Shown here one piece after another: positions 31,703 to 55,667 of a stretch of DNA of 64,000 nt (positions within the stretch are counted from its first letter, which is position 1; each line of letters begins with the position of its first letter). This DNA is from Eubacteriales bacterium. Its GTDB lineage: Bacteria; Bacillota; Clostridia; Oscillospirales; CAG-272. The notes beneath the pieces are model-generated. The model did not search any database. It had not been told where the DNA came from and was given only the letters and a program-made list of their open reading frames with translations. Both the position numbers and the translations under genes were made by a program. The stretch is taken from NCBI GenBank assembly GCA_045127215.1, contig JBGVPV010000046.1:1792-65791 (forward strand), written 5' to 3'.

Positions 31703-31756
31703 TGGTGCGGGTAACAGGACTTGAACCTGCACGAAGTCGCCCCCACTAGAACCTGA
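31703..31756 (-). pseudogene. 3-prime fragment of a split tRNA-Leu(CAG), from anticodon loop to CCA; left junction of the element
   Basis: The first 30 nt (tggtgcgggtaacaggacttgaacctgcac) and the last 12 nt (actagaacctga) match the intact tRNA at 55390..55443, with a different 12-nt variable arm. Homology stops exactly at ACCTGA (31751-31756). Confidence 0.85.
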
Positions 31757-31900
31757 TGGTAACGTCACCTCGGTGGAAGGTTTTTCGCACCATTTTTATA
31801 TTATTTATAGTATAGCATAAAAGTCAAGGAAAATCAAGTCTAAAGTGTTAAATCTGCTTTTGGTCTGGACTTTCCGAAAGCGTTGTGATATTGTGTTGTG

Positions 31901-31968
31901 GTTCACAAAAAAGCGAAACTAAAGTTCACAAAAAAGCGATTGCTTTTGTTCGCAATCTGTGATATAAT
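31901..31968 (+). promoter_or_regulatory. Direct-repeat (LytTR-box-like) operator plus promoter upstream of the two-component genes
   Basis: GTTCACAAAAAAGCGA at 31901-31916 and 31924-31939 (23-bp period), abutting TTGCTT (31940-31945), 17 nt, TATAAT (31963-31968). Confidence 0.55.
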
Positions 31969-32050
31969 ATTTTGGGTTTTTGTATTCAAAGATATTTTTT
32001 AGTAGATCTGTGAAAGCAGTTATAATCATAAAATGAAAGAAGGTGTGGTA

Positions 32051-32764
32051 ATGCGAAGGATTGCAGTTCTTGACGATGAAAAATCATATTTAGACTCCGT
32101 CTTAGCACTTTTGGAAGAATATGAAAGTGAACGAAACGAGCATTTTGCGACGGAACGATTTATCAATCCGTCTGACTTTCTTGATAAACTGGAAAGCGGT
32201 GCGGTATATGATATCTATCTTCTTGATATCTATATGCCCGGTGTTACCGGTATGAGTATCGCAACGGAGCTTCGCAGCCGTGGGGTCAAGAGTCCTATTA
32301 TTTTTCTGACCTCCTCCACCGATCACGCTTTACAAGCCTTCGGTGTAGATGCTACCCATTATTTGCTGAAACCCTATACAAAAGACAATTTTTATGTGGG
32401 TATGGATAAAGCGATGCAAAGCATCACCTCCCACAAAGACGACAGCATCGTTTTGAAAGTGGATAATGAATACCGGAGTATCCCGGTATCCAAAATTATA
32501 TACTGCGAAGCCGAAGACAAATATCAGCGGCTCTATTTGGACAAGGCTGAAAGATTGCTTATCCGTATCAGCGGTACAGAACTTTATAAACAGCTTTCGG
32601 AATTTGATTGTTTTTACCGCTGCGGCAGAGCGCATATTGTAAATCTGAACCATATAAGCCGTGTGACACAAGACGGTGTATCGTTCAAAAGCGGTATGGA
32701 TTTGAGTCTTCCGCATACAGTGCAGGCAGGCTTGCGAAAAGCATTCTTTGACTATTTCAATTAG
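32051..32764 (+). CDS. LytTR-family response regulator (AgrA/ComE-like)
   Basis: Receiver domain (IAVLDDE ... IYLLDIYMPGVTG ... IIFLTS ... YLLKP) plus a LytTR DNA-binding domain (IPVSKIIYCEAEDKYQRLYL ... FYRCGRAHIVNLNHI). The start could be 32033 or 32051. Confidence 0.92.
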   Translation: MRRIAVLDDEKSYLDSVLALLEEYESERNEHFATERFINPSDFLDKLESGAVYDIYLLDIYMPGVTGMSIATELRSRGVKSPIIFLTSSTDHALQAFGVDATHYLLKPYTKDNFYVGMDKAMQSITSHKDDSIVLKVDNEYRSIPVSKIIYCEAEDKYQRLYLDKAERLLIRISGTELYKQLSEFDCFYRCGRAHIVNLNHISRVTQDGVSFKSGMDLSLPHTVQAGLRKAFFDYFN

Positions 32765-32779
32765 GAGGTGCCTTTTTAA

Positions 32780-33997
32780 GTGATGCAACATATTGTTTTT
32801 TTGACACTTACGATACTATCTCATATCTGTGCCTCCTTGTTTTTTGCAAAGCCACGTTTTAATAAAATCATCACTGCGGTGATCTGGCTGCTGTACAGCA
32901 GTGTGTTTTTTATGCTCAGTCCAGAGGGATATATCAATTACTTTATTTCCGTTGCGCTGCATCTGACACTGTTTTTTGTCACAACCACAGGTCGTGCCGT
33001 TGAAAAAGGGTTTCTGTTTTTTAGTTATGCCACAACCTATACCTGTTTTTCCACATTATTTAATATGCTGGTGCAGGTCGTGGATAGTATGACGGTCAAG
33101 GTCATTCTTGCCTTTGTGTGTATGGCAGTTATGCAATTTGTTTTGTATAGGCTGCTGCTTCCTTCTTTTCAAAAGGTCGCAAAGTATATTCGTGAGGGTT
33201 GGGGCAAATTCTATGCGGTGGTGCTCAGCTTTTGGGTGCTTATTGTCGGACAGTTCCTGTTTACTTGGATGGAGCTGATAAAAGGTGTTGACAAGATCCT
33301 TTGTTTGATTACGATCGTTGCTTTCTGCTTTACCTATATCGCCATGTTCAACAACATGAAGAACATCGTAGAGCTGTCACGGGAAAAGCAAAAATCCTTA
33401 CATACCGAGCTTTTGCAAATACAGGTAGATGCGCAATCAAAGGAAGCTGCCATCGTGCGGCAAAACCGTCATGATATGCGTCACCACTACCAGGAACTAT
33501 TGTCAATGGCACTTGAAGGGAAAACAGAAAAGATCATCGAATATTTAAAGATTCAGAGTAAAAGCATCGAAGCGATGAATACCGGTCGTTTCTGTGAAAA
33601 TGAAACCATTAACAATATTTTGAAGGTCTTTTATCAAAAGGCTACAAGCCAAAATATCACCATAGACATTCGTGCAGCAGCAAAACCGGATATTTCCGTG
33701 CCGTCTCCGGCACTTGTAACCATCGTTGCGAACATTTTGGAAAACGCCCTTCACGGAGCTGTGGAAAGCAAAGCGAAAAGCCCCAATATTACAGTTTCCA
33801 TTAAACACAAATCAGGTCACTTAGTGATCTCGTGTGAGAACACTTGTAGTCAGTCCCTAAAATTTGAAGAGATGCCCGAATACTTACAAGGCATCGGCAT
33901 CCACAGTGTTATCTCCACTGCGGAAAAGTATAACGGCTCCTGCCGCTTTTCGGCATCTGACGGTGTGTTCAGCTGTACAGTCATTATGGATGAATAA
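32780..33997 (+). CDS. GHKL sensor histidine kinase, AgrC/ComD-like (HPK10-type)
   Basis: About 6 N-terminal TM segments, an H-box NRHDMRHHY, an N-box ILENALHGA and a G-box GIGIHSV. Confidence 0.88.
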   Translation: MMQHIVFLTLTILSHICASLFFAKPRFNKIITAVIWLLYSSVFFMLSPEGYINYFISVALHLTLFFVTTTGRAVEKGFLFFSYATTYTCFSTLFNMLVQVVDSMTVKVILAFVCMAVMQFVLYRLLLPSFQKVAKYIREGWGKFYAVVLSFWVLIVGQFLFTWMELIKGVDKILCLITIVAFCFTYIAMFNNMKNIVELSREKQKSLHTELLQIQVDAQSKEAAIVRQNRHDMRHHYQELLSMALEGKTEKIIEYLKIQSKSIEAMNTGRFCENETINNILKVFYQKATSQNITIDIRAAAKPDISVPSPALVTIVANILENALHGAVESKAKSPNITVSIKHKSGHLVISCENTCSQSLKFEEMPEYLQGIGIHSVISTAEKYNGSCRFSASDGVFSCTVIMDE

Positions 33998-34012
33998 CCG
34001 AATAACGACAAC

Positions 34013-34050
34013 AAAAACTCCTGCCGATTGGCAGGAGTTTTTGTTGTTTT
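34013..34050 (+). terminator. Terminator after the kinase gene
   Basis: aaaaactcctgcc gatt ggcaggagttttt followed by a T-rich tract. Confidence 0.8.
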
Positions 34051-34067
34051 TACGGGTCAAGCACTAA

Positions 34068-34132
34068 CTTCACGACAAAAAAAGCGCACTTCACGACATT
34101 TTTCCGTTTTTAGAGAGCTTATGCATTATAAT
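34068..34132 (+). promoter_or_regulatory. Second LytTR-box-like direct repeat plus activator-type promoter in front of the peptidase/fibre genes
   Basis: CTTCACGACA at 34068-34077 and 34089-34098 (21-bp period). The first copy continues AAAAAAGCG, like the boxes at 31901. TATAAT at 34127-34132 with a poor -35. Confidence 0.55.
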
Positions 34133-34166
34133 TATGATGATTAATGAAGAAAAGGGGTATTTTTCT

Positions 34167-34388
34167 ATGAATATGAAAAAACATACAGAATTTTCAACTC
34201 CGCCTATCGGGAGTAAAATATCACGTTTTGATCATTGCCCATGCTTTTCAGCAAGGAGGAGTTTACTTGCCACAGAGCCGATTTGCTGGTTCTGTCGGTT
34301 TGCAAAGTTTGATCTTTTTGCCGATAAACTTCCGGAAAGCGGTGTTTGTAAACATCCGGTTGAACAAGCAGAAGACAAAAAGAAATAA
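34167..34388 (+). CDS. Small Cys-rich hypothetical protein (73 aa)
   Basis: ATG at 34167, 9 nt after GAAAAGGGG. CPC ... CWFC ... C pattern. First ORF downstream of the box-containing promoter. Confidence 0.4.
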   Translation: MNMKKHTEFSTPPIGSKISRFDHCPCFSARRSLLATEPICWFCRFAKFDLFADKLPESGVCKHPVEQAEDKKK

Positions 34389-34455: not shown

Positions 34456-35208
34456 ATGGTAAAGGAAAAGACTTCTAAATCCCACAAAACACTAACGATT
34501 ATAGGAATAGTGCTCTGTGTCATTTTAGTGCCGATTCTGCTGATTAATGTTACGCTGATTATCAAGAGTTACGTAAATAAAGATGAGGTTCCGAGTGTTG
34601 GAGGAACATTCCCTATGATCGTACTGACGGACTCAATGTATCCGGATATTAAAAGCGGAGATCTGATCTTCTGTCGTACCGTCCAGGCAGATTCTGTAGA
34701 AGAAGGAATGGTGATATCCTTTTTTGATCCTGCGGGTAACGGAAGCACGGTAGTTACCCACAAGGTGATTGAAATACTCCACAACGAGGACGGGACGCGC
34801 TCGTTCCGTACCAAGGGTATTAACAACAATACCGAGGATAGATTGCTTGTTCCCCAAGATAATCTTGTAGGGCGTTATACGGGGGTGCGTATCCCGTATG
34901 CAGGTAATGTCGCACTCTTTATGCAGACAACATACGGACTTATCGTATGTGTATTTATTCCATTTGTTTTGCTTGTTGCTTATGATATTATTCGCCGCCG
35001 AAAAAACGAGAAGAATCAAAGTAAAGATGTAGCTGCCCTTATGGCAGAGCTGGAAAAACTCAAAGCGGAAAAAGAAGAAAAAATTGACCCCCAATCAGAG
35101 AAGAAGATCTCTTCGACAGAAAATATCGAGAGTTCCGTATCGGAAGAAAAATCCGATGATGAAACTGTTATTCTTCCCTCGGAAGCCACGTCCGGGGATG
35201 GAATATAA
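34456..35208 (+). CDS. Signal peptidase I, archaeal/ER (SipW) type, paralog 1 with long charged C-terminal tail
   Basis: N-terminal TM, catalytic-Ser region VLTDSMYPDIKSGDLI, His region VVTHKVIE, TKGINNN (the GDxN-like box), a second TM, then a 70-aa Lys/Glu/Ser-rich tail. Confidence 0.85.
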   Translation: MVKEKTSKSHKTLTIIGIVLCVILVPILLINVTLIIKSYVNKDEVPSVGGTFPMIVLTDSMYPDIKSGDLIFCRTVQADSVEEGMVISFFDPAGNGSTVVTHKVIEILHNEDGTRSFRTKGINNNTEDRLLVPQDNLVGRYTGVRIPYAGNVALFMQTTYGLIVCVFIPFVLLVAYDIIRRRKNEKNQSKDVAALMAELEKLKAEKEEKIDPQSEKKISSTENIESSVSEEKSDDETVILPSEATSGDGI

Positions 35209-35312
35209 ATTGCCGCGGCAGATGCCGCAAAAAAACCGGCACTGCCGGCAAATATCTTTCCCCGCATAAGGGAAGAGTAAAAACCTACATAATCCGAAAG
35301 GAGATTAAAACA

Positions 35313-35996
35313 ATGATGAAAAACAAGATGATGAGAATTGCTTCCGTTCTTTTGGTAGCGGTTCTCCTTTCCACCTGTGCTATTTCAGGCACTTTCGCAA
35401 AGTACGTAACCTCCAAGGAAAGCACCGATACTGCACGTGTTGCAAAGTTTGGCGTAGACCTTGCTGTTACTGTTGATGGCGCTTTTGCAACCGAGTACGA
35501 TGCAGATACGGCCGCAAACGATGAGCATGGTGTTGCCATTGCAAAGACCGTAGTTGCTGCTACCGGCGATCCTGATAACTTGCTTGCTCCCGGAACCGAG
35601 GGCGACTTGATGGCTTCTGCAACCATTTCCGGCACCCCTGAGGTTGCTGTAAATGTGAAGCAGGAAGCTACCCTTGTTTTAACCGGCTGGGCAGTAGAGG
35701 GTACTTATTACTGTCCTCTGGTTATCACCGTTGATGGCACTGAATTCTACGGTATGGATTATACCTCTGCTGCAGAGTTCATTGCTGCTGTTGAGGCTGC
35801 TCTGGATAGCGACGTGAACTATGCACCCAATACCGATCTGACTGAATCTCACTCTGTGACTTGGGCATGGGCTTTCGAAGGCACCGACGGTAAGCAGACC
35901 GACGAGTTGGATACTGCTCTGGGTAATTACGCTGCCAAGACCGGTGACATCGAGATCTCTTTCACCTACAAGGTTATCGTAACTCAGATCGACTAA
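35313..35996 (+). CDS. TasA/camelysin-like secreted protein with SipW-class signal peptide (putative major subunit)
   Basis: The signal peptide ends in SGTFAKYVTS (compare GGTxAxFxD in TasA/CalY). LAPGTEG and WAWAFEG motifs. Followed by a strong terminator. Confidence 0.75.
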   Translation: MMKNKMMRIASVLLVAVLLSTCAISGTFAKYVTSKESTDTARVAKFGVDLAVTVDGAFATEYDADTAANDEHGVAIAKTVVAATGDPDNLLAPGTEGDLMASATISGTPEVAVNVKQEATLVLTGWAVEGTYYCPLVITVDGTEFYGMDYTSAAEFIAAVEAALDSDVNYAPNTDLTESHSVTWAWAFEGTDGKQTDELDTALGNYAAKTGDIEISFTYKVIVTQID

Positions 35997-36149: not shown

Positions 36150-37325
36150 GTGCCGGAAACAATAGAAATAAACGAAACGAATAATAGTGTTCGATCAAAC
36201 ACCTCTGCAAATGGAGCTTTTTGGACAGCAATAGCTATTTTGATACTGCTTTTAGTATTGAGTACGGTAATACTTTCAATTCAGCTTTATTCGTTTGCAA
36301 CTATAGATGAGCGTGTTCTATCTATAAAATCAAACACGGATGCTCGTTTCGATGTGTTTTCACTGCAATATGAAAACGCTTCAGGAGAGATAACCGTTAT
36401 CGGAACAGAAGGCGAAAAGATTATTGCACCCGGTACCGATGTTGAGTATGCAGTACGTCTGCGTAATGCCGACAAAGTAGCGCTTGATTACGAGATACTT
36501 CCGACTGCAAAATTTTATTCAGAGTATAAAATTCCTGTTTATGTACGAATTATCGGTCCGGATGAAACCTATGTAGCAGGTGACGCAAAAAATTGGATAC
36601 TGATTGAAGATCTGAATGACACAAGAACTACAGCAACACTGAAAAAGGGTGAATCAGTAGAGTATATTTTTCAATGGAAATGGCCGTATGAGAGTGGAGA
36701 CGACGGATATGACACCTTTCTTGGAGATAACGTATACGAAGAAAATATAGGTGTTATTGTTTCATTTGACGTTTATGCAACGGCAAATACAACTTTAGAC
36801 GATAATGATGGATTGTTCGGAAATGTTTACGGCAATACTTCCTTCATTCTTATTTTCACCGTTTTGCTGCTCATTGCAATCATTATTCTTTTGATTTATA
36901 AGTTCATCAAAAAGCGCAACAAGGATAAAGGACCGACCCCCGTTATCATACCTGCTCCTCAGCAAGAGGTCGAGATTGAGATTGCGCCTGCTCCTGTGTG
37001 CGAACCTTATATTGAACCTGAAGTAAAACAATCTAAGAAGGCGTTTGTTGGTAAGATGTCATTTGTAAATATTGATACTTTGGATCAATACTTTAACGAC
37101 GGTGATACCGTAAGTCTGGAGAAGCTGAAAGCCATGGGGCTCATTCCCGCGAATGTAAAACAGATGAAGGTGCTTGCAAGATACACAGGCGAATTTAGCA
37201 AGGTGCTTACAGTGGAAACTCAAGGAATATCTGCAGAAGCGCGAGTCGCTATTGTGAAGGCAGGCGGAAAAGTAATTATTACCGATGGAGGCACAGATAT
37301 CGCGGAAAACAAGGGTAAGCAATAA
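36150..37325 (+). CDS. Bitopic membrane protein: SipW-type N-terminal segment, TasA-like ectodomain, TM, Pro-rich linker and uL15-like C-terminal domain
   Basis: GTG start 6 nt after AAGGAGG. IQLYSFATID motif. Second TM SFILIFTVLLLIAIIILLIY. The C-terminus FVNIDTLDQYFNDGDTVSLEKLKAMGLI ... KVLARYTGEFSKVLTVETQGISAEARVAIVKAGGKVIIT resembles the ribosomal uL15 C-terminal domain. Confidence 0.75.
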   Translation: MPETIEINETNNSVRSNTSANGAFWTAIAILILLLVLSTVILSIQLYSFATIDERVLSIKSNTDARFDVFSLQYENASGEITVIGTEGEKIIAPGTDVEYAVRLRNADKVALDYEILPTAKFYSEYKIPVYVRIIGPDETYVAGDAKNWILIEDLNDTRTTATLKKGESVEYIFQWKWPYESGDDGYDTFLGDNVYEENIGVIVSFDVYATANTTLDDNDGLFGNVYGNTSFILIFTVLLLIAIIILLIYKFIKKRNKDKGPTPVIIPAPQQEVEIEIAPAPVCEPYIEPEVKQSKKAFVGKMSFVNIDTLDQYFNDGDTVSLEKLKAMGLIPANVKQMKVLARYTGEFSKVLTVETQGISAEARVAIVKAGGKVIITDGGTDIAENKGKQ

Positions 37326-37885
37326 TGAAGAAAAAAGTATTAAGAATAATCTGTACAACATTTCTTTCACTTGTGATGAGTTTCATCATTGGCTTGAGTT
37401 TCTATTCGTTTAATGCCAGAATGGTTCATCACAATTCAATGCCTATGCCGTTTGGCGTGGGTGTTTCGGTAGTCCTCTCGGGCAGTATGGAACCGAAATT
37501 TTCAGCGGGAGATCTTATTGTGGTTGTTGAGGCAGATGATTACGCTATAAATGATATTGTTGTATATCAAAGCGCAAAAAATGCTGTAGTACACCGAATT
37601 ATAGATATTGATGAAGACAGGATTATCACCCAAGGAGATGCCAATAATGTAAGTGACGAACCGATAGACAAAAGCTGCATCAAGGGAAAAGTTTTGTTTT
37701 CAATTCCATACTTTGGATACGTGGTATCATTTCTCAAATCCACACCGGGCACGCTCATTGTACTGGTGCTTGCATTTTTCCTGTTTGAATATTCGTTTAT
37801 ACGGGAGAAGAAAGAACAACGCAAAAAAATAACTGAAATCCGCAATGAGATAGAAACACTCAAAAAGGAGCAGGATATGCAATAA
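37325..37885 (+). CDS. Signal peptidase I, archaeal/ER (SipW) type, paralog 2
   Basis: SGSMEPKFSAGDLIVV, VVHRIIDI and TQGDANN motifs with TM segments at both ends. The start overlaps the upstream stop (TAATG). Confidence 0.9.
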   Translation: MKKKVLRIICTTFLSLVMSFIIGLSFYSFNARMVHHNSMPMPFGVGVSVVLSGSMEPKFSAGDLIVVVEADDYAINDIVVYQSAKNAVVHRIIDIDEDRIITQGDANNVSDEPIDKSCIKGKVLFSIPYFGYVVSFLKSTPGTLIVLVLAFFLFEYSFIREKKEQRKKITEIRNEIETLKKEQDMQ

Positions 37886-37906
37886 AACACGAAAGGGAGG
37901 GTGTCT

Positions 37907-38404
37907 GTGGAAAAGGTTAATAAAAAAACACCCATAGTGTTTTATGTTGGAATCGTATTATTAGGTTTAGTTATCATCAGTTCGTATTTCACGAATGGTT
38001 TATATGCTCGCTATGCTGTGTCGGAGTTTTCCTACGATGACGCAAGGATTGCATCCTTTGACGTAAATATTGTATCGGGCGTCAATCTTTACAGTAAGTT
38101 GATCGAACTTGGTGAAATTCAGCCAGGTGATGAAAGCAGCATATCCTTTACGGTAAACAATAATAGCGAGGTTGCGGTTGCCTTGAATATTACTGCGATT
38201 AATTTGACCGGGAATCTCCCGCTTGATGTACCGCTGAAGGGTACAATCGATGCAAATAGTCCTATTTTTTCAGAAACCTTGAATGCGGGCGAGAGTGCTG
38301 TGCTTACGTTTACAATTACTTGGGATGAAAATAATTCTGATCCTTCTGGTGCGGGAAAAACAGATATTTTGGAGCTGAGAATCGCGGTGGAGCAAGTTGA
38401 TTAA
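37907..38404 (+). CDS. TasA-like small secreted protein with SipW-class signal motif (putative minor subunit)
   Basis: I prefer the GTG at 37907, 6 nt after GGGAGG; the ORF opens at 37901. TNGLYARYAVSE motif followed by DDARIASFDVNI. Confidence 0.65.
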   Translation: MEKVNKKTPIVFYVGIVLLGLVIISSYFTNGLYARYAVSEFSYDDARIASFDVNIVSGVNLYSKLIELGEIQPGDESSISFTVNNNSEVAVALNITAINLTGNLPLDVPLKGTIDANSPIFSETLNAGESAVLTFTITWDENNSDPSGAGKTDILELRIAVEQVD

Positions 38405-38436
38405 AATGCGAGACAAAATGAGTGGAAAGGAGCAAA

Positions 38437-39273
38437 ATGGCCATAAAAAAGAAAGATAATGGAAGAATGAATATCCACATAAGAACAATCGTATGCGCGG
38501 TTTTGGCTCTTGTGATTTTATCGACGATTGCTGTAGGTGGAATATTCGCAAAATACATAGCAGGAACTCAGACGAAAGGCTATCTTTCATCCCCAACGTT
38601 TTATTTTACCAGCGATATATTGAAAGAAACTGCCGTTTCCTATACTCTCAATCCTGGAGAGAACGGTGCTACCGAAGTGTCGTTTCAAGTTCGCAACTTT
38701 GCCGATGAATTACGAATTGCGGATAAAGATATTAGCTTTTCGGTTAATGTAATGCCGTCGGATGGCGTAACCGTTATGATAAACGGTATAGTAACCTCTA
38801 CGGGAACGCTTTTGGCGTCCCCGTCTGACGGTTCTTCTGAAACCGTCACAGTTTCCGGATTAAAAAACGGTCAGACTTATATTATTACCGCAACAGGAGA
38901 TGCCGGATTTGTTAGTACCTTGCGTGCAAGTATCACCGTAAAACCTGACGAGAAGGAGATATACAAGCATTTAGATGTTTCTGATCCGAATTATGTTCTT
39001 CTTACTGTATGGACGAAAAATCTTTCAGGAGCTGTAAATGTAAAGTTCCCGGATGGACTTATACCGGATGGTACGGATAATGTTATGAGTACAGTATACA
39101 ATTATAAAGACGGTTCGTATGTAGCCTCTGAATTTATAGATAGCACAAACTTTGCCCATACTTATTCGTCGCATGTGTATAGATTCTTTAAGACAAATAA
39201 TCAAGATTATACAGCAAGTAATTTTACTGTCAGACTGGGCACTGCTGATGCTATCGAAACAATACCCGAGTAG
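38437..39273 (+). CDS. Secreted protein with SipW-class signal motif (putative minor subunit, 278 aa)
   Basis: ATG at 38437 after GGAAAGGAG. The signal segment ends in VGGIFAKYIAGT. Confidence 0.65.
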   Translation: MAIKKKDNGRMNIHIRTIVCAVLALVILSTIAVGGIFAKYIAGTQTKGYLSSPTFYFTSDILKETAVSYTLNPGENGATEVSFQVRNFADELRIADKDISFSVNVMPSDGVTVMINGIVTSTGTLLASPSDGSSETVTVSGLKNGQTYIITATGDAGFVSTLRASITVKPDEKEIYKHLDVSDPNYVLLTVWTKNLSGAVNVKFPDGLIPDGTDNVMSTVYNYKDGSYVASEFIDSTNFAHTYSSHVYRFFKTNNQDYTASNFTVRLGTADAIETIPE

Positions 39274-39289
39274 AAAGGAGCACTTAGTT

Positions 39290-42200
39290 TTGAAACTTAT
39301 AAAAACAAAGAAATATGTGCTCATGATAGTATTTTTTCTTATGAGCATCTTTTTAATTGTAACTGTTTTTGCTGCAGAAGAGCCTGTTAAAATTGACAAT
39401 AACGGTTCACGCCTTGTCGCAAAACACGCAGAGTTATCTTCGCCGTCATATCAATGGATGATTTCAGACGTGCTTGACAGCACATATTCCAATATCGACG
39501 GTGCGACAGGTCGATACTACGATATAACAGATGAAAACGAAGGTAAATATATAAAAGTATCCGTTAACGGTGTAGAAAGCCAGCCTATTGGCCCAATAGG
39601 AAAGCTTGTTGTCATGGATATAGGAAAGGGTGCAATTAGTCTCGGTACCAGTTACAGCGGCAAGGATTCCGATGGCAATTCCGTTTCCGGCACACATGCC
39701 GCTTCCAACATCTATGTGATAGTCCATAAGGAAAACGGAACCAAGACCGAAAATAACATCGTTTTCAGTGGTAATCTTCCGAGTGCGCCCTTTGATGTGA
39801 CGCTTGCAGGCGTGAATATGGGCACTACCCCAAAAAACAACAACCAGGCACCCGGTAGCAGTGGCTCAAACACGCCGACAACCGGTGAAATCAGAATCCC
39901 TGCCACAAGTAGTGCCGTAAAAAAAGTGACCCTGCGTCTGCGGGATGAGAATATTGTTCGCTACATTTCCTATTACAACGGTAGTGATACAAACCAACCT
40001 GCAACGGTTGCTTCTTCTCTGAAAATAACAAATATCAACGGAGATGGTGAAGTGGAGGGCGGATGTTTATACGTTCCAATCAAACTCGCTCCCGAAGAAA
40101 TTGAAGCATTTGTAAACAGTAAAACAAACTACAACCACTGGAATGCCGGCATTGGTGGAACGGACGGAAACTCTCTTGTTCAGAATTTGCATATTGCAGG
40201 CGGTAAGATACAGGTCGTAACCACGCTGGGCGATAACTGTACAGCTATCGGTGCCGGCGGTAACGGATACTGCCAAATGGAGATCTCCGGCGGTGAAGTT
40301 ATTGCCCATTGCAACGGCACAGGTGCGGCTATTGGCGGTGGCATTGGCTGGAATGCTGCAGCCGGTAAGGCGGACATATTGATTACCGGCGGTAAAATTT
40401 ATGCAGAAAACCACGCAAAAATTACCGCAGCCAAAGACGGAATCAATCATACGGTTGGTGGCGTGGCCATTGGATCCGGCAGCACGTTTCATTCAAGCGG
40501 TAGTAGCGGTACTGTTACGATTACCGGTGGCGAGGTGGAAGCCTATGGAGCTTACGGTAACGGTATCGGTGGCGGCAACAGCTCCTCCTATGCAGGTGGC
40601 GGTGCAACCATTAATATTACCGGCGGTACCGTAAAAGCGAACTCTATTGGTGGCGGAAACAGTGCCAAAGGTGCCGGTGGAGATGCTACGATCACTATTG
40701 ATAATGATGCCAATGTCAGACTGACCAAAGAAGGAACCGATTGCGATTTCTGCGGTATCGGTGGCGGTAACAGTCTTTCCGGTAACGGCGGAAAAGCTAC
40801 CATTACCGTGAAAAGCGGTACTATCAACTCTGACGGCTCCATCGGTGGTGGCGAAGGCGGCGGCACAGGAAATGGTGGCGACGCTACTGTAAATATTTAT
40901 GGCGGTAACCTTACGGCTGCATCTATCGGTGGTGGTACCGGAAGTGTCGGCGGTCACGGCGGCGCAGCTATCGTTGAAGTAACGGACGGATTTATTGAAA
41001 CCGGCTCCATCGGCGGCGGTAAAACCAACAACCCCAATGGTCAACTTGGATATGCCAAAGCAACTATTAAAGGCGGTGACATCGTCGGTCAATTCTTAAT
41101 GGCGGCAGGGGGAACCGAGCGCTGTTCCTTTACGATGACTGGAGGCACACTACACGGTGTGAATACAGCAGATACGTCAAAGTTTATTTATGCGCAACAA
41201 AACGGTGCTGCGGTGTATATGGACGACCCCAATGGTATCGTTTCTATCTTCGGAGGCACCATAAAGGATTGCTCTGCCAAAAATGGTGGTGCTGTTTATA
41301 TGACTGCGGGAACGTTTACCCTTTCCGGTGGCACGATTACCGATTGCCATGTCACAGGAAATGGCGGCGCTGTTTATCTCGGCGGTGGACAAATGACTGT
41401 TGTAGGAGGAAGTATCAAGGCAAACACAGCTAAAAACGGCGCAGGTGCTTACGTTAATGCGTCAACGCCAAACGACGGTGTTTTCGTGAGCGGTGGAGAA
41501 ATCACAGATAATATTGCGGAAGAGAATGGCGGTGGTATTGCCATCAACAACGGATTTTATAAAATGACAGGTGGCGCCGTTGAAGGAAACACATCAACAA
41601 ACGGAAGCGGCGGAGGTATCTATGTAGCGGCCAACGGCGTTGATGTTTTGGTCGATATCCGTAGCGGTTCGGTCAGCAATAACAAAGCAGGCATCAGTGG
41701 AGGCGCGATAGCAGTTGTAGGACAAAACAACGGATTGGAAAATATTTCGGTTACCGTTGGCGTCAATGAGCAACATTATGACGATCAGGGAAATGAGGTG
41801 ACTTGCGATCACGATTATACGGCAGTAGGTATCGTGGTAGAAGCTTGTCCTGAACTCAAAAACAACTACGCAACGAAGAACGGCGGATGTATCTATATCA
41901 CAGGTGGAGTTAAAACAATGCTCAATACATACTGCCTTGTTGAAGAAGGCAGCTCTGCGGCAGACGGAAAATCCAAGAGCAATTTTATGATGGTCGAGGG
42001 CGGTACTGTAAATATTTCCACCGCAGACGGCAACACCGAAGACGGGGGTAACTCCCACGGCAAGATCACAATCAATAACACCATTCATGTTTATGCCGGT
42101 GATATGGACCTTTATGGTTCTATGACAAACCCGCAGATTCTCGCACCGATTACGGTAGACGTTACTACTGAGCGTGGTTCTTACGAGGATCACCGAACAT

Positions 42201-44851
42201 CGGATGGTGAATACTACAAGCTACAGTATTTTGAAAATTTTACGGATCCGGATACGGGCATTCGGACAGGTCAGTATACCGTGTACCAGATTAAGCATGG
42301 AGATTCACATGAGATCCTTCTCTCTATTTATGAGCATGAAGGATACACCATTGACGGTTGGTGGACAAGTGAATTTGGAGACGTTCCGGGAAGTATAGAA
42401 TACCTGGTGAATAAGTCTTACGTGTTTACAAATGAGTCTGATGAAAATCCGGGTCATCTGACTCTGTATGCCAGATGGCTTCCTGTTGGATATTACGTTT
42501 ATTTTGAATCCGGAACGACAGATTCGTACCGAGGCGAAATGGCTCATGTCCGATATAATTATGATACCGAAAATATGCTTCCGGCCAATGAGTTTTTTAG
42601 ACCGGGATGGATATTTGCGGGCTGGGATTATGACGGTGAAGGCGATAAGGAGCTTCTTGCAGATAAGGCAACCGTAAAAAATCTGACCACGGACAGAAGC
42701 ATTACACTGGTTGCCGTTTGGGTACTTTGTGATCATAAAGATGAACTCTTTTCCTATTCTGCTTCAGGGGATACTTTGACCCGTAGCTGTTATTGCGAAG
42801 AATGTACACAAACAGCTACACTCATTGCAGAGGATACAGTTTATGTTGACAACAATACTGCTCCCTATGAGGCTGAGATAAGGATTGTTACCAATGTTAA
42901 AAACGGGGCGCAGCCTAACAGTTGGACGCTTACTCCTATATACGAAGGAAAGAAGTACAATGGCAATAATTTTGATTCTGAAGAGTTTTTGATTGGAGCA
43001 GGCCGTTATTCGGTCAGCATAACCGATGGCGGAGAAACCGTTACAGTCAATTTTGAAATCAAAAAAGCTACAAGAGATACTCCCGAAAAACCACGGTATG
43101 AAAGTAATGAAACCAATCAGGAAATAACTAAGGGGCAAATTAAAATTATTAATCCGGACGATACGACGGGCGGCATTCTGCAATATAAGATCGTATGGCA
43201 CGATGATCTCGGAACCTCTCATGAGGCCTTTGCCGATTTGAATACGGCAATTACAACGGGGTTCACTCTTACAACAAACTATACGAACTACTACGTGTAT
43301 GTAAGATACGAGGAGGATGACAATCACAACGCCTCGGAGTGGATCAGAGCAGAATCGGTACTCTTTTACGTGGGTAACGTCTATATTTATATAAACAGTG
43401 AAAAGGGTATTGAATACTCAACGACGTCGGAAGAAGCACAACGAGGCTTGGTTATCGATGTTTATGCTTCTGAGGGCTATTATTTGTTTGATACAAAAGT
43501 GACAGATGATAATGAGGCTACTGTTATTGAGGAACAAGTGCTACGACAAAGATACTACATCGCAAATATTCCGGAATCTACATCAGCTCCAATTAATATT
43601 TATGTCACTATTACGGGTGTAAAGAAAGAAATCCAAATTTCCGCTAACATAACTGAGGCAGAAGAGTTTGGTACCGTGAAAGGCATGTCTGCGCTGATCA
43701 CACGTGACTCGGCTTACACTGTGTATTTCGAAATTCAAAATTATGATGTGTACACCAATCCAAAGCTGGTATTCAACACACTGTTGCCTGAAAAAACGAC
43801 GCTGATCTTTGTGGATAAGACAACGGGAACTCCTGTGCTTTGGTATTATAATGTGCTCAATTCAACCAACGAAATTGCTTTAAGCCAGTTTGTGCGAATG
43901 GGTGCTGAAAACACGCTCTTCAGCGTTCCCGCAAGTTCAATCGATACACCTTTGAAATATCAGGTCATCATTGATTTTGCTGATAGTGAAGGATGTTCCG
44001 GAGAGAATATTACAACTACATTTTCGGCTGATGTTTCGGCTGATGACAAAAGCAATGGAGCCCCCGACTTTCCTGCAAGCTCGCTTGTAAGCCAATTAAA
44101 AGACATTGCTTCTTCATCTGTTGTTGTTACTGATTCTGAAGAAGATACTATGCAAAAGAATTTGCATATTGAATATCTGCAGATCACAGACAATGCAATA
44201 GCGTCAAAATGGAATAATCGTTGCGGTGCGTTGCTACTGACCCCATTATGCGAACTTACCGAGGATGCCCGCATAGAAGTTATAGATCATACCGGAATGA
44301 AAACAACGTATTACCGTAATTTGAGTGGGCAGTTTATTATTTCTCTCGCAGGCAGTCAAAATGAGGATTTGCAGATAACTCTGATATCTGATATTTTTCC
44401 GAATGAGCAATCCGAATATACATTCCGAGTGGAACTCATAAGTTCCTGTTCGTTGGCGGGATTAGCTCCGTTGAACGGAATAAAGGTATATGATTCGAAA
44501 CAGTTAACATTTACTAAAAATACAAAAGATGTAGAGCCTTCATTGAAAATAGACGGAGATAAGAATATATACAACGTTGGTGATACGGTTACGGTAAATA
44601 TAGAATACCGAAACTGTCCGGAATATACTGTTCTTGTACTTCGACTACTAAGCAAGGATACATCTGTAAGCTTGTCGAGCAATACTTATGTAGATACAGG
44701 CTGGAAGCAGCAGAGTGATACCGTAGAGGGGGATAATTATGTGCCTCTTGGTCAAAATTTGACGGGAAGTTGTTGCATAGTAGTGGAACTGCGAGATATA
44801 ACTGGCAACGTTATTACAAGCGTTCCGTATTACTTCGTCGTTTGCGAGTAA
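39290..44851 (+). CDS. Giant secreted beta-helix / adhesin-like protein (about 1853 aa)
   Basis: Probable TTG start at 39290, 9 nt after AAAGGAG, giving a Sec signal peptide MKLIKTKKYVLMIVFFLMSIFLIVTVFAAEE. Gly-rich IGGGxxxxGxGGxAT(I/V) repeats, GGA(I/V)Y Pmp-like repeats, two InlB-B-type repeats, and a long C-terminal region of unknown fold. The start codon is uncertain. Confidence 0.8.
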   Translation: MKLIKTKKYVLMIVFFLMSIFLIVTVFAAEEPVKIDNNGSRLVAKHAELSSPSYQWMISDVLDSTYSNIDGATGRYYDITDENEGKYIKVSVNGVESQPIGPIGKLVVMDIGKGAISLGTSYSGKDSDGNSVSGTHAASNIYVIVHKENGTKTENNIVFSGNLPSAPFDVTLAGVNMGTTPKNNNQAPGSSGSNTPTTGEIRIPATSSAVKKVTLRLRDENIVRYISYYNGSDTNQPATVASSLKITNINGDGEVEGGCLYVPIKLAPEEIEAFVNSKTNYNHWNAGIGGTDGNSLVQNLHIAGGKIQVVTTLGDNCTAIGAGGNGYCQMEISGGEVIAHCNGTGAAIGGGIGWNAAAGKADILITGGKIYAENHAKITAAKDGINHTVGGVAIGSGSTFHSSGSSGTVTITGGEVEAYGAYGNGIGGGNSSSYAGGGATINITGGTVKANSIGGGNSAKGAGGDATITIDNDANVRLTKEGTDCDFCGIGGGNSLSGNGGKATITVKSGTINSDGSIGGGEGGGTGNGGDATVNIYGGNLTAASIGGGTGSVGGHGGAAIVEVTDGFIETGSIGGGKTNNPNGQLGYAKATIKGGDIVGQFLMAAGGTERCSFTMTGGTLHGVNTADTSKFIYAQQNGAAVYMDDPNGIVSIFGGTIKDCSAKNGGAVYMTAGTFTLSGGTITDCHVTGNGGAVYLGGGQMTVVGGSIKANTAKNGAGAYVNASTPNDGVFVSGGEITDNIAEENGGGIAINNGFYKMTGGAVEGNTSTNGSGGGIYVAANGVDVLVDIRSGSVSNNKAGISGGAIAVVGQNNGLENISVTVGVNEQHYDDQGNEVTCDHDYTAVGIVVEACPELKNNYATKNGGCIYITGGVKTMLNTYCLVEEGSSAADGKSKSNFMMVEGGTVNISTADGNTEDGGNSHGKITINNTIHVYAGDMDLYGSMTNPQILAPITVDVTTERGSYEDHRTSDGEYYKLQYFENFTDPDTGIRTGQYTVYQIKHGDSHEILLSIYEHEGYTIDGWWTSEFGDVPGSIEYLVNKSYVFTNESDENPGHLTLYARWLPVGYYVYFESGTTDSYRGEMAHVRYNYDTENMLPANEFFRPGWIFAGWDYDGEGDKELLADKATVKNLTTDRSITLVAVWVLCDHKDELFSYSASGDTLTRSCYCEECTQTATLIAEDTVYVDNNTAPYEAEIRIVTNVKNGAQPNSWTLTPIYEGKKYNGNNFDSEEFLIGAGRYSVSITDGGETVTVNFEIKKATRDTPEKPRYESNETNQEITKGQIKIINPDDTTGGILQYKIVWHDDLGTSHEAFADLNTAITTGFTLTTNYTNYYVYVRYEEDDNHNASEWIRAESVLFYVGNVYIYINSEKGIEYSTTSEEAQRGLVIDVYASEGYYLFDTKVTDDNEATVIEEQVLRQRYYIANIPESTSAPINIYVTITGVKKEIQISANITEAEEFGTVKGMSALITRDSAYTVYFEIQNYDVYTNPKLVFNTLLPEKTTLIFVDKTTGTPVLWYYNVLNSTNEIALSQFVRMGAENTLFSVPASSIDTPLKYQVIIDFADSEGCSGENITTTFSADVSADDKSNGAPDFPASSLVSQLKDIASSSVVVTDSEEDTMQKNLHIEYLQITDNAIASKWNNRCGALLLTPLCELTEDARIEVIDHTGMKTTYYRNLSGQFIISLAGSQNEDLQITLISDIFPNEQSEYTFRVELISSCSLAGLAPLNGIKVYDSKQLTFTKNTKDVEPSLKIDGDKNIYNVGDTVTVNIEYRNCPEYTVLVLRLLSKDTSVSLSSNTYVDTGWKQQSDTVEGDNYVPLGQNLTGSCCIVVELRDITGNVITSVPYYFVVCE

Positions 44852-51066: not shown

Positions 51067-51387
51067 ATGAAAAACCAAGAACAAAAAACAGTAATTATTC
51101 CGTTCCGTGTCACACCCGCGGAGAAGGAAAAGATCGAAGAAATGTCATACGGACATTACAAGCTGATGAGTGATTTCATCAGAGAATGTATCTTTAAAAA
51201 AGATATTATTATCATCGACGGAGCTGACAAAATTGCCGATGAGCTTCGCCGTATCGGAAACAATATAAACCAACTTACAAGAGCCGCAAATGCGGGAATT
51301 ATCTCTGTGGTTGACCTAAGAGAAACAAGAAAGGAGCTGGCAGAGCTATGGCAATCGTTAAATTCGTTGCAGCGAAACGGACTATAA
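51067..51387 (+). CDS. mobC: MobC-family relaxosome accessory protein
   Basis: RIGNNINQLTRAANAG motif (MobC G-N-N-L-N-Q signature). 106 aa. Overlaps the relaxase gene. Confidence 0.85.
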   Translation: MKNQEQKTVIIPFRVTPAEKEKIEEMSYGHYKLMSDFIRECIFKKDIIIIDGADKIADELRRIGNNINQLTRAANAGIISVVDLRETRKELAELWQSLNSLQRNGL

Positions 51388-52328
51388 AAAGTGCGCTGAA
51401 TTATATTACAAATCCCGAAAAAACAAATGAAACTTTAGTATCGGGTGTCAACTGTACTCCCGAGAGCGCGGAGAGTGAATTTGATTTTACTAAAAGAAAA
51501 TTCAACAAACACGGTGGACGTGAGTACTATCACATCGTCCAATCTTTCAGTCCCGATGACAATATTACTCCCGAGATCGCACACGAAATAGGTATTAAAT
51601 TTGCGGAATATTTCAAGGGATATCAGATAGTAATCTCCACTCATTGTGACAAAGATCATATTCACAACCATATGATTATGAACTCCGTAAATTATAAAAC
51701 GGGAAAGAAATTTCATCAGAGCAAAGAAGATCTAATGCGCGTCAAAGAGTTTTCAAACAAGCTCTGCCTAGAGTACGGTCTCTCTCAAACCGAGCCAAAA
51801 TCCGATTGGAAAGAGATGCCCAAATGGAAAGCGAAGCTTAGAAATGACGCTTATTATGCGGCAAAAGTGTCACGCACAAAAGAAGAATTTATAAAGCTTA
51901 TGAAGAGCTATGGTTACAAAGTAAAATGGGAGGACGGACATAAATATATCACGTTCACCACGCGCGACGGAAAGAAATGCCGTGACAATAAACTCTTTGC
52001 CGAGCAATTATTAAGAGAAAATCTCGAAATTTATTTTGCTCTCGGAGGTTGTGATTCAGGACTAGCGGAGCAGTACGCGGAATACAGAACTCCCGTTAAA
52101 GATAACGTAGGTTATACCTTCGGCAATGGATTATTTATGTTACTCAAAAATCTGCTTGAGAGTGTGCCTCCCGAGATGCAATACGAGCCTCCAATAGAAC
52201 GAGGTGAGCTTGATAAAATGACGCTCATGGAACTTGAAGCTATGGGAATTAAAGTCGAGCCAAAGGCTTTTGTTTACTACTCGGCAAACGAACCTTACGA
52301 GGAAGAGCGTATGGGATTTTATCTATAA
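51348..52328 (+). CDS. Relaxase/mobilization nuclease (MobA/VirD2-type)
   Basis: YYHIVQSFSPDD and the histidine triad STHCDKDHIHNHMIMNSVN. Confidence 0.9.
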   Translation: MAIVKFVAAKRTIKSALNYITNPEKTNETLVSGVNCTPESAESEFDFTKRKFNKHGGREYYHIVQSFSPDDNITPEIAHEIGIKFAEYFKGYQIVISTHCDKDHIHNHMIMNSVNYKTGKKFHQSKEDLMRVKEFSNKLCLEYGLSQTEPKSDWKEMPKWKAKLRNDAYYAAKVSRTKEEFIKLMKSYGYKVKWEDGHKYITFTTRDGKKCRDNKLFAEQLLRENLEIYFALGGCDSGLAEQYAEYRTPVKDNVGYTFGNGLFMLLKNLLESVPPEMQYEPPIERGELDKMTLMELEAMGIKVEPKAFVYYSANEPYEEERMGFYL

Positions 52329-52454
52329 AAAATATATGTCTTGTATGATAACTCTTGCCGTGTGAGCTGGACTTTGAAGTCCGCTTGTGATATCATTGCG
52401 TTACACGGAGGTAGCGCAAAAACCATTTAAGAATAACAAAGAAAGGATAATTTT

Positions 52455-52622
52455 ATGAAGAAAAATAATAGCCTCCCAATCGAAAGAGTCACCTTTGAAT
52501 ACGTTGGAACTGACAAGCAGTTCAATGAATTTCTGCGCTCAGTCATCCACGATTACGTGACAGATGATAAGACCCTGCCTGAGCAGAAAATAACCGATCA
52601 TAACGAGCAAAATATTGCTTGA
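52455..52622 (+). CDS. Small hypothetical protein (55 aa) upstream of the recombinase
   Basis: ATG 6 nt after AAGAAAGGA, with a compact position between the relaxase and recombinase genes. Below the ORF-track cutoff. Confidence 0.4.
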   Translation: MKKNNSLPIERVTFEYVGTDKQFNEFLRSVIHDYVTDDKTLPEQKITDHNEQNIA

Positions 52623-52657
52623 TATGAAATATATTTCAGAAGAAAGGAAAAGAAAAA

Positions 52658-54283
52658 ATGAAAGTATGGTTATACTATCGCTTGTCCAGAGATGAGGACA
52701 AGAAACTGAACTCACTCACCAACCAAAAGAAAATACTCGTGGACTATTGTGACAGCCACGGATATGAGATCGTCGGTGAGTCATTCGACGATAACGTCAG
52801 CGGTATGCACTTTGACCGTGACGGTATCGAAAAAATTTATGAGGAAGTGGATAAGAAAAGCATTGATGCGGTCGTGGTCAAGGACCTATCCCGTTTGGGT
52901 AGGCACAAGACACAGACCGCTATTTTTATCGACTACCTTCGTCAGAACGATATCCGAGTGCTGTCGGTCACCGAAAACATCGACACAAGCAACGAGGATG
53001 ACGAGCTTATCGTTGGCTTCAAGGGAATATTCAACGATATGTACTGCCGCGATATCTCAAAGAAGATACGCGCGGGATACAAGCAAAAGCAGAAATCGGG
53101 GATAGTCCTTATTCCTCCTATGGGTTACTTCAAGGATAAGAACACCGGAAAGGTTGTAATCGTAGAGGAACAAGCCGAGATTGTCCGACGGATATTCACG
53201 CTCTATCTTGACGGATACGGGCTTAAAGCAATTGCCAATATACTCAATGAAGAGGGGATAAAATCCCAAGGATACTATCAGCAGCAGATACTCGGAAAAA
53301 GGCTTGGCAACAATAAACCCGAGATCGCGCACCGCTTCCTGTGGGAGAGCACAGGTGTTAAACGAGTTCTGCAAAATGAGTTCTATACGGGAACTCTCGT
53401 CTGCCATAAGTCCTACACAAATAAAATAAACCACGTGAGGAAAGAACTACCTCCCGAGGAACATTATCGACACGAAAACTTTGTGCCTGCTATCATATCA
53501 AGAGAGATATGGGAGCAGGCACAATTTTTACTATCCGAGAAAGTAAGAAATAATGTGAGAGCATCAAGCGGTAAGCCTTGCCACAGATACACGGGACTTC
53601 TCAAATGCGCTGACTGTGGTTCGAGCTTCAGTTGTAAGACAAGGCGGTGGAAGAATAAACCCGACAGATACGAATACGTCTGCAACGGATACCACCGCTA
53701 CGGCAGTGAAAACTGCACCTCTCACAGAATCGACGAAGCCGACCTCGACAACCTCATATATGAGGAGTTGATGAGTATCAAGGAAGATGCACAAAAGAAT
53801 TACGACAGCATTGAATCCGACGTCAAGCGTTGGCTGTCGCAAAAGAACACCGCAGAAAAGCGTATACGAGAGCTTACGGCAAAGCTGGAACAGCGAAAGA
53901 GCGACCAGCAGTTGATATTGCTTGAACGTATCCGTGATCGAGAACACGCAAGTGTGTACGATGAAATGCTTGTAAAATGCGATGCGGACATCAAGACTCT
54001 AACAGAACAGATCGATGCGATACGAAACTTCGAGGAAACTATCCGCAAGAGAAAAGCCGAGATCAAAAGCGGAATCGATATGCTGGACGAGATCATAGCT
54101 GAGGGAGCTATCAGCAACACGCATCTGCGAATGCTGATAAAGGAAATACTCATAGCAGAGGTGGACGGAAAGCTGAGGATAAAGATACAGATGAAAGCGA
54201 AGTTTAGCTCACACATTGATTTTATCCCCGACTATGACGATCCGATGTATCAGAGTATGGGGCCGTATCAAATAAAGTTATAG
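52658..54283 (+). CDS. Large serine recombinase
   Basis: Resolvase catalytic N-terminus (VWLYYRLSRDED, VVVKDLSRLGR), a recombinase domain, a Cys4 zinc ribbon (CADCGS ... CNGYHRYGSENC) and a C-terminal coiled coil. Confidence 0.93.
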   Translation: MKVWLYYRLSRDEDKKLNSLTNQKKILVDYCDSHGYEIVGESFDDNVSGMHFDRDGIEKIYEEVDKKSIDAVVVKDLSRLGRHKTQTAIFIDYLRQNDIRVLSVTENIDTSNEDDELIVGFKGIFNDMYCRDISKKIRAGYKQKQKSGIVLIPPMGYFKDKNTGKVVIVEEQAEIVRRIFTLYLDGYGLKAIANILNEEGIKSQGYYQQQILGKRLGNNKPEIAHRFLWESTGVKRVLQNEFYTGTLVCHKSYTNKINHVRKELPPEEHYRHENFVPAIISREIWEQAQFLLSEKVRNNVRASSGKPCHRYTGLLKCADCGSSFSCKTRRWKNKPDRYEYVCNGYHRYGSENCTSHRIDEADLDNLIYEELMSIKEDAQKNYDSIESDVKRWLSQKNTAEKRIRELTAKLEQRKSDQQLILLERIRDREHASVYDEMLVKCDADIKTLTEQIDAIRNFEETIRKRKAEIKSGIDMLDEIIAEGAISNTHLRMLIKEILIAEVDGKLRIKIQMKAKFSSHIDFIPDYDDPMYQSMGPYQIKL

Positions 54284-55389: not shown

Positions 55390-55476
55390 TGGTGCGGGTA
55401 ACAGGACTTGAACCTGCACCTCCTTGCAAAGACTAGAACCTGAATCTAGCGCGTCTGCCAGTTCCGCCATACCCGC
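55390..55476 (-). tRNA. tRNA-Leu (anticodon CAG), CCA-encoded, long variable arm
   Basis: The reverse complement GCGGGTATGGCGGAACTGGCAGACGCGCTAGATTCAGGTTCTAGTCTTTGCAAGGAGGTGCAGGTTCAAGTCCTGTTACCCGCACCA folds as a cloverleaf: 7-bp acceptor stem, CTAGA/TCTAG anticodon stem, loop TTCAGGT, T-loop TTCAAGT. Confidence 0.93.
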
Positions 55477-55625: not shown

Positions 55626-55667
55626 ATATGAGGTAATAGGTAAGAGTGAATAGTGAAGAAGTGAGAA

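Follow-up and report, generated by a model that had tools for sequence, protein, structure and literature searches.

The 64,000-nucleotide stretch of contig JBGVPV010000046.1 analyzed here (hereafter the window) carries a LytTR-type two-component system whose genes are flanked by two sites of direct repeats, the second of which stands before an operon for signal peptidases and secreted proteins. The regulatory genes and sites, the cargo genes and the mobility genes described below lie on the forward strand. The response regulator gene (32051..32764) encodes an N-terminal REC domain (PF00072, 4.8e-15) and a C-terminal LytTR domain (PF04397, 3.2e-10), and the match of the regulator C-terminus to PF04397 exceeds the gathering score in the Pfam search. 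In 20 homologues the acidic-pocket residues D8/D9, the phospho-acceptor D59 and K107 do not vary. The REC domain with its conserved acidic pocket, Asp and Lys, as well as the C-terminal LytTR domain, are all in place for a regulator of this class. The adjacent gene (32780..33997) encodes a sensor histidine kinase of the AgrC/ComD type (HPK10) with a HATPase_c_5 domain (PF14501, 5e-12). Approximately six transmembrane (TM) helices are predicted from hydrophobic segments in residues 1-191, and the H-box reads RHDMRHH at residue 230, the HPK10 consensus being of the (K/R)HDxxxH type. The kinase therefore combines the polytopic N-terminal sensor (5-7 TM), H-box and HATPase_c_5 domain that define HPK10 enzymes, and the LytTR two-component system proposed in a first-pass annotation of this DNA can be assigned to the LytTR/HPK10 type by its domains and catalytic residues.

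The same annotation had called the system Agr-like. Searches of PDB sequences with phmmer did not recover AgrA with the regulator at E values up to 1e-3, nor AgrC with the kinase at E values up to 1e-2; the LytTR domain of the regulator matched structure 3d6w at 3.3e-7, and the kinase gave zero PDB-sequence matches. Because the LytTR domain reaches only 3d6w, and because AgrA and AgrC are not recovered, the resemblance to Agr is best read as one of domain architecture, with no close kinship. Across the main clade of related loci, identity is 62-74% in the sensor part of the kinase and 74-95% in its catalytic domain. Pheromone specificity groups are expected to show a hypervariable sensor, and the pattern seen here does not appear to be of that kind.

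With respect to the flanking repeats, site 1 (31901..31939) consists of two copies of GTTCACAAAAAAGCGA (at 31901 and 31924, period 23) and directly abuts the TTGCTT element of the regulator-kinase promoter, which comprises TTGCTT (31940), a 17-nt spacer and a TG-extended TATAAT (31963; 31940..31968 overall). This promoter was omitted by a consensus promoter scan, in which TTGCTT is a 3/6 match, and was checked by hand; its TG-extended -10 is kept in most orthologues. Following the kinase gene is a strong intrinsic terminator (34003..34052) with 23-nt arms, a folding energy of -35.5 kcal/mol (z -8.3) and a subsequent U-run, which separates the two-component operon from the regulated promoter. 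It was likewise omitted by a consensus terminator scan and was found by hand and by folding. At site 2 (34068..34098), CTTCACGACA occurs twice at a period of 21 bp, and the intervening sequence holds an invariant A-tract; with the preceding A, the repeats read ACTTCACGACA at 34067 and 34088, the cores starting at 34068 and 34089. Downstream is the -10 hexamer TATAAT (34127..34132), and the corresponding -35 position is occupied by CCGTTT, a 1/6 match to consensus. The arrangement of both sites, including the abutting TTGCTT-17-TATAAT at site 1 and the poor -35 at site 2, is thus present as the first-pass annotation had described it.

Repeats of this kind are infrequent in the window. A scan for exact direct repeats (9 nt or longer, period 18-25 nt) returned 9 in total, as compared to a shuffle mean of 3.1, and sites 1 and 2 are the longest among them (16 and 11 nt, respectively). 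Pairs of the form TTCAC-N14-20-TTCAC occur three times, with 0.96 expected. The third of these pairs, at 55929-55960, has no CGAC core, gave no score in the scan with the family motif described below, lies outside the mobile island and was treated as chance.

A conserved operator before the cargo operon

Conservation of the repeats in homologous loci had been set beforehand as a check on the two sites, and it separated them: site 2 is conserved, and site 1 is absent in orthologues. The orthologue set was obtained from a one-genome-per-species scan with regulator alignment, which gave 29 loci with regulators 52-86% identical to the query, from metagenome-assembled genomes labelled Faecousia, Acutalibacteraceae, Oscillospiraceae and other Clostridia. 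The pattern TTCRCGAC-N13-TTCRCGAC follows the kinase terminator in 20/20 covering related loci besides the window, whatever cargo follows. In a scan of 84 loci, moreover, the pair was found once only and at the same position in all 18 of the 18 covering loci, and it was found again in L085 and L086. Alignment of the orthologues shows TTC.CGACAAAAAA, TTC.CGAC and TA..AT to be invariant at fixed spacing as the flanks drift, which constitutes a classic phylogenetic footprint. The resulting consensus is WTTCRCGACA x2, 21 bp apart, and a TAnnAT -10 follows at an unvarying distance of 37 nt, by which the proximal site-2 core also precedes the -10 in the window.

When the window was scored with a position weight matrix (PWM) derived from 30 half-sites of orthologues, the half-sites of site 2 took the top two ranks among ~128,000 positions, with a score of 18.4 bits. 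Positions G6 and C8 of the motif are invariant in all 30 half-sites and are kept in a distant clade (L021-23) whose regulator is 52% identical. Specifically, these distant loci carry ATTACGCCA and ATCACGCCA, that is ATYACGCCA x2, with a period of 21 and 36 nt to TATAAT. The spacing of these repeats is the same and their sequence is changed, and the box has therefore co-diverged with the regulator on a fixed geometry. The ~9-bp direct repeats, the linker of 12-13 bp and the weak -35 downstream are those of LytTR operators; the ComE operator consists of 9-bp repeats separated by a 12-mer linker (PMC4005675), and the repeats recognized in the RgaS-RgaR system contain critical G residues at -51 and -72 (PMC10602386). 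Taken together, these comparisons support the assignment of site 2 as a genuine, conserved LytTR operator that would control the downstream peptidase/fibre operon. The proposed activation of that operon through the site-2 boxes accordingly gains support from conservation in 20 loci and from canonical LytTR geometry.

We also considered whether the site-2 repeats might be bound by some other regulator, or might be non-regulatory, for instance a recombination or mobility site at the junction between cassette and cargo. The repeats do lie exactly at the border between the conserved cassette and the variable cargo, where such a recombination site would also be found. Their geometry, however, is that of LytTR operators, with 9-bp repeats, a 12-bp linker and a fixed distance to a -10 that has no -35 (PMC4005675); the box sequence co-varies with regulator divergence at a retained spacing; the 84 loci hold no other instance of the pair; and the -10 is co-conserved with it. 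These features render the alternative very improbable in our estimation, and we regard site 2 as the operator of the adjacent regulator in what follows.

A further claim, that both sites belong to one TTCAC-A-rich-GCG family, held in part. The TTCAC and the A-tract are indeed shared by the two sites. The AAAGCG extension, which we tried as a part of the motif, was rejected: it is out of register between the sites (the distance from TTCAC to GCG is 6 nt in the first and 10 nt in the second), the GCG falls outside the conserved motif, and orthologues outside the 99% clade read GGG or other sequence. As a separate observation, the site-2 spacer (34080-34086) reads AAAAAAAGCGCAC only in the clade that bears site 1 and AAAAAAAGGGCAC elsewhere. 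The AAAGCG common to the two sites of that clade could reflect sequence exchange or coincidence.

In terms of transcription, assembled contigs from four gut metatranscriptomes, which are unstranded, cover the locus in two blocks. Contigs over the regulator and kinase genes have low depth, start at 31991 and 32016 and end at 34009; depth is zero in the 34064-34217 bin; and coverage resumes from 34233 onward at a level 5-10 times higher. This distribution fits two separate transcription units, the second driven from about 34127, with the data offering consistency rather than proof. Depth reaches 60-600 over the gene for a 227-aa secreted protein in the second unit. The rise to this level takes place within 35142-35449, shortly before the start of that gene and across it, stands far above the depth of the upstream SipW gene and involves many variant contigs, which suggests that the gene has its own promoter, that a processed transcript is stable or that many alleles co-occur. 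An Rfam scan of the window returned tRNA only, with no known riboswitch or small RNA in the leaders.

The repeats before the regulator gene and the question of a signal

The repeats of site 1 have a different history. A TTCAC pair 5' of the regulator gene is absent in all orthologues with regulators at most 86% identical, including the 84% and 86% relatives. Among elements that are 96-99% identical, site 1 is part of a 23-bp tandem unit, AAACTAAAGTTCACAAAAAAGCG, which is present in one or two copies. L081-83 and one of the X1 contigs have a single copy, the metagenome contigs X2 and X4 have two full ones, and sample X1 holds both one-copy and two-copy forms. In the window, and apparently in L084 too, the distal unit is truncated where it meets different upstream DNA. 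In contigs with a module 96% identical in DNA (regulator 99%), only the proximal copy is present, a NikA-like gene lies upstream, and the homology of the window to these contigs ends between the two site-1 copies. An exact metagenome scan for the proximal copy plus promoter (29 nt) found nothing. With regard to the motif itself, the site-1 half-sites lack G6 and C8 and score -0.9 bits against 18.4 for site 2 (rank 247 of 127,980), and their period is 23, unlike the 21 of the family motif. Site 1 is thus best described as a lineage-specific, recent and variable 23-bp duplication, and not as a conserved autoregulatory operator.

The first-pass annotation had supposed that the regulator activates its own operon through a matching pair of boxes. 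Since the site-1 repeats are unconserved in homologous loci, this autoregulation is unsupported, and the variable copy number, the period of 23 and a score of ~0 bits point the same way. A more restricted version would hold that site 1 is a recently evolved, weak autoregulatory operator (TTCACAAAA repeats) giving positive feedback, the 23-bp duplication having made the second half-site. Its orientation is that of site 2, its proximal TTCAC lies 38 nt from the -10 as compared to 37 nt at site 2, and both sites combine TTCAC with an A-tract. Moreover, AAAGCG occurs in the site-2 spacer only in the 99% clade that carries site 1, and the allele with two copies is joined to different upstream DNA in window/L084 and in X2/X4. 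Set against this are the missing G6 and C8 with the attendant low score, the period of 23 rather than 21, the one-copy alleles in 96-99% identical elements and the absence of site 1 from every orthologue with a regulator at most 86% identical. Furthermore, the A6-GCG tract abutting the -35 also fits a plain UP-element-like A-tract of a constitutive promoter. On balance we consider such an operator unlikely, and favor the reading of site 1 as a duplication.

The region upstream of the regulator promoter also contains a distinct element in other loci. An imperfect palindrome, GTTTTGTGAAATCATCAAAAC, is located ~40-70 nt 5' of the regulator -10 in L001, L003, L008-L010, L012, L016 and L086, and one of its arms corresponds to TTCACAAAAC on the minus strand; the window has a degenerate version only (31876-31895). 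This palindrome looks like the operator of a different, dimeric regulator.

The reported lack of Agr or Com signaling partners was borne out. The open reading frames (ORFs) scanned across ~20-64 kb of the window included neither AgrB nor an AgrD-like gene nor a C39-peptidase ABC exporter, and no agrB/agrD or ComAB-type exporter was found in related loci either. The only ABC pair found, at 57025-60535, lies beyond the island and represents an ordinary heterodimer linked to MarR. The upstream neighbors of the regulator vary from locus to locus, with none conserved in the 29 loci. Of the Agr-like designation, then, the domain architecture stands. Membership in the Agr system proper does not hold, with neither agrBD nor a conserved autoinduction operator present and kinship to AgrA and AgrC not detectable.

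A signal candidate had been seen in the 73-aa Cys-rich ORF at 34167..34388, which comes first or second among the genes behind the operator in >15 loci. The encoded protein has five Cys, four of them invariant in a Cx16CxxCx16C arrangement, a positive net charge and no leader or TM/hydrophobic segment. It gave zero Pfam, NCBIfam or PDB matches and an AF2 model with a pLDDT of 55, and its family amounts to ~24 clusters in a set of 5.8 billion proteins, none of them annotated. Wherever the locus was examined (L001-L026 equivalents), the gene is located behind the LytTR operator. Being leaderless, with four invariant Cys and a sequence that is conserved (58-88% across loci) rather than hypervariable, it makes a poor signal candidate. 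To judge from these features, the ORF is a conserved partner gene whose product looks like a cytoplasmic metal-binding protein and not like a pheromone precursor.

A loop of the Agr kind operating in the absence of AgrB would require this protein to be the precursor of a pheromone that the SipW peptidases or other machinery process and export and that the kinase senses. The tight linkage of the ORF, directly behind the inducible promoter in >15 loci, would indeed provide positive feedback like that of agr, com and pln. This has to be weighed against the absence of a signal peptide, double-glycine leader or hydrophobic segment, a Cys pattern typical of metal binding, a degree of conservation that extends to the kinase sensor domain (62-74%), the absence of SipW from most loci having the 73-aa ORF, and the absence of an exporter near it. 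In addition, L018/19 and L021-23 retain the two-component system and its boxes with no 73-aa ORF. We therefore hold a pheromone role to be highly improbable, and the view of the protein as a partner gene of the cassette is preferred.

The cargo operon and the mobile island

The gene of the 73-aa protein is followed by two genes for SipW-type (archaeal/ER-type) signal peptidase I, of which copy 1 is located at 34456..35208 (TIGR02228, 1e-28; SipW model, 1.4e-28) and copy 2 at 37325..37885 (TIGR02228, 1.4e-25). Their TIGR02228 scores of 100 and 90 bits, respectively, compare to a cutoff of 51.85, and their matches to the Bacillus SipW equivalog fall under the cutoff of that model. Between the two lies the 227-aa secreted protein noted above (35313..35996), a candidate major fibre subunit that has a TM segment in its N-terminal part and a T-x-AKY motif that is invariant. 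Its family has 4,759 matches, all unannotated. The AF2 model of this protein has a confident beta-rich core, with residues 21-91 unmodelled, and the best Foldseek hits (E 4e-3) were to chaperone-usher (donor-strand) pilin domains; no match reached E <0.001, and TasA (PDB 8aur) was not among the matches. The product of the next gene (36150..37325) is a membrane protein of 391 aa whose C-terminus holds a ribosomal-L15-like domain (PF00828, 3e-12). That the last 70 residues of this protein match L15/L27A is odd for a surface-fibre operon, and the protein is kept in the equivalent operon of L017 and L081.

Two further secreted proteins of 167 and 283 aa (37901..39273) have the leader and motif in common with the 227-aa protein. 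In BLASTP comparisons with the latter they gave values of 5e-6 and 2e-4 over the N-termini, and the three proteins are alike only in the N-terminal TM segment and the G-x-(F/Y)-A-(K/R)-Y region. This common leader region points to joint processing by the dedicated peptidases. None of the three has a Pfam or NCBIfam match, including Peptidase_M73 (TasA/camelysin). The last gene of the apparent operon (39152..44851) encodes a giant Gly-rich repeat surface protein of ~1,820-1,900 aa, parts of which resemble large proteins behind the operator in other loci. From the logic of the operon, the SipW peptidases, the common leaders and the precedents of tapA-sipW-tasA and sipW-bsaABCRSD as SipW fibre operons (PMC7395162, PMC11580942), we infer that the cargo probably specifies a surface fibre or adhesin apparatus. 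A large surface protein with Listeria-Bacteroides repeats and a GLUG motif is also encoded at 25158-26975, outside the island.

In other loci the cargo is different. In most loci of the main clade the genes behind the operator specify a membrane protein and the Cys protein, along with several giant proteins of Gly-rich repeats and one of the cell-wall-anchor type, and the distant clade L021-23 has a ~1,000-aa protein in which several solute-binding domains are fused to an ABC permease, and no surface proteins. As judged from this comparison, the cassette is modular, the same cassette standing before differing cargo.

The cassette and its cargo are located in what we predict to be an integrative mobilizable island of 23.7 kb at tRNA-Leu, of which the regulatory cassette occupies the far end. 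The 3' half of tRNA-Leu recurs as a 54-nt repeat (30 + 12 nt exact), with copies at 31703-31756 and 55390-55443, 23,687 bp apart. The former copy is a remnant on the minus strand (31703..31756) that marks the left boundary and was called by neither ARAGORN nor Rfam; the latter belongs to the intact tRNA-Leu(CAG) gene at the right boundary (55390..55476, minus strand), identified by the repeat and by tRNA calls. Domain searches identified mobility genes at 51067..54283, namely NikA/MobC, a MobA/VirD2-type relaxase and a large serine recombinase. The island also carries an HTH_36 protein, and its GC content is 41.1% as compared to 45.5-46.2% in the flanks. The assignment as an integrative mobilizable element is made because of the flanking tRNA repeats, the recombinase, the relaxase with its accessory protein and the deviating GC content. 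A tyrosine integrase would be expected at a tRNA, and the domain search found none, the large serine recombinase being the only such enzyme; a 294-aa ORF adjoining the tRNA (54395-55279) had no domain match. An extra copy of the tRNA-Leu 5' half, 94% identical to that of the intact gene, is present at 55587-55634, and the three tRNA-Leu pieces suggest repeated integration events at this tRNA.

A probable portable cassette and its relation to known systems

The most probable explanation of the locus, and one in which we place considerable confidence, is a portable cassette composed of a LytTR regulator, an AgrC/ComD-type kinase, a terminator and a tandem-repeat operator, which switches on a surface-fibre operon and for which site 1 is only a duplication. 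In such a scheme a membrane or extracellular cue would lead the kinase to phosphorylate the regulator at D59. A regulator dimer would then occupy the two site-2 repeats, at about -41 to -70, and recruit RNA polymerase to a promoter that lacks a -35. The induced genes would be those for the 73-aa Cys protein, the two SipW-type peptidases, the three leader-sharing secreted proteins and the giant surface protein, whose products may assemble into a fibre or adhesin apparatus at the surface. Transcription of the regulator and kinase genes themselves would proceed from their own promoter with its TG-extended -10.

Several points weigh against this explanation. The proposed pairing of regulator and operator is drawn from adjacency and co-variation. 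The RNA contigs are strandless and assembled, so zero depth does not prove that RNA is absent. The fibre nature of the cargo rests on SipW and the leaders, with Peptidase_M73 unmatched and nothing at E <0.001 in the fold search. Finally, the orientation and position of site 1 (38 vs 37 nt) leave an outside chance of some autoregulation in this lineage.

A broader proposal, which we put forward only tentatively and consider rather doubtful at present, would unite the regulator, kinase, operator and 73-aa protein as a three-protein mobile cassette. The 73-aa protein would be a third signaling component, perhaps a connector that responds to redox state or metal and acts back on the kinase or regulator, or perhaps a factor required for expression of the very long cargo operons, and the whole would be exchanged between surface-structure operons across gut Oscillospirales. 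As part of this proposal, the copy-number-variable 23-bp unit could tune or toggle autoregulation between strains.

With respect to characterized systems, the portable cassette resembles S. aureus AgrCA and S. pneumoniae ComDE in its REC-LytTR regulator and polytopic HATPase_c_5 kinase, as well as in the two 9-bp direct repeats with a 12-bp linker just 5' of a weak -35 (PMC4005675). It differs from both in that this locus and related loci are without AgrB/AgrD or ComC/ComAB and have no conserved autoregulatory operator. Here, moreover, the regulator precedes the kinase, a terminator parts both from the target promoter, the sensor domain is not hypervariable, and AgrA and AgrC are not recovered by sequence search. 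The cassette also resembles C. difficile RgaS-RgaR and C. perfringens VirS-VirR, which likewise combine an AgrC/VirS-like kinase, a LytTR regulator and direct repeats 21 bp apart. As with RgaS-RgaR, the signal would not be an adjacent peptide; RgaS is unresponsive to AgrD1 (PMC10602386). Unlike the genes of the cassette, however, those for RgaS and RgaR are encoded apart, and the two proteins control several dispersed promoters with VirR-box sequences, whereas in the present case both genes and their one operator are packed into a compact mobile cassette with a different box, TTCRCGACA.

A parallel on the side of the cargo is found in BsaRS-sipW-bsaA, where SipW and secreted self-assembling proteins are under obligatory two-component control from the same locus (PMC7395162; PMC11580942), BsaRS controlling the sipW-bsaA operon (PMC7395162). 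There, bsaRS lies inside the regulated operon and is autoregulated by read-through, whereas the two-component genes of the window lie upstream with their own promoter and terminator, and the secreted proteins of the window give no detectable sequence match to TasA/BsaA (Pfam M73 unmatched). The B. subtilis tapA-sipW-tasA operon similarly places a dedicated SipW-type peptidase beside its secreted fibre substrates and is regulated by SinR, AbrB and RemA, not by a LytTR system; the present operon differs from it in having two SipW copies, three leader-sharing substrates and no detectable TasA homology. By analogy, then, the cassette is closest in logic to RgaSR and closest in biology to BsaRS-sipW-bsaA.

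The general view of how LytTR systems work is unchanged by these findings, which add another AgrC-like/LytTR pair with no cognate peptide gene nearby, after RgaSR, and flag an unstudied family of small four-Cys proteins tied to the cassette. To our knowledge, almost nothing has been described of regulation in this group of Clostridia. For its uncultured gut and rumen members (Faecousia, Acutalibacteraceae and Oscillospiraceae), the comparisons define an operator precisely (WTTCRCGACA x2), along with its paired regulator and a target operon whose cargo is abundant in bovine-gut metatranscriptome contigs. The occurrence of one cassette before differing cargoes, and its placement on a mobilizable island, suggest that regulated fibres or adhesins are exchanged among these bacteria as ready-wired units.

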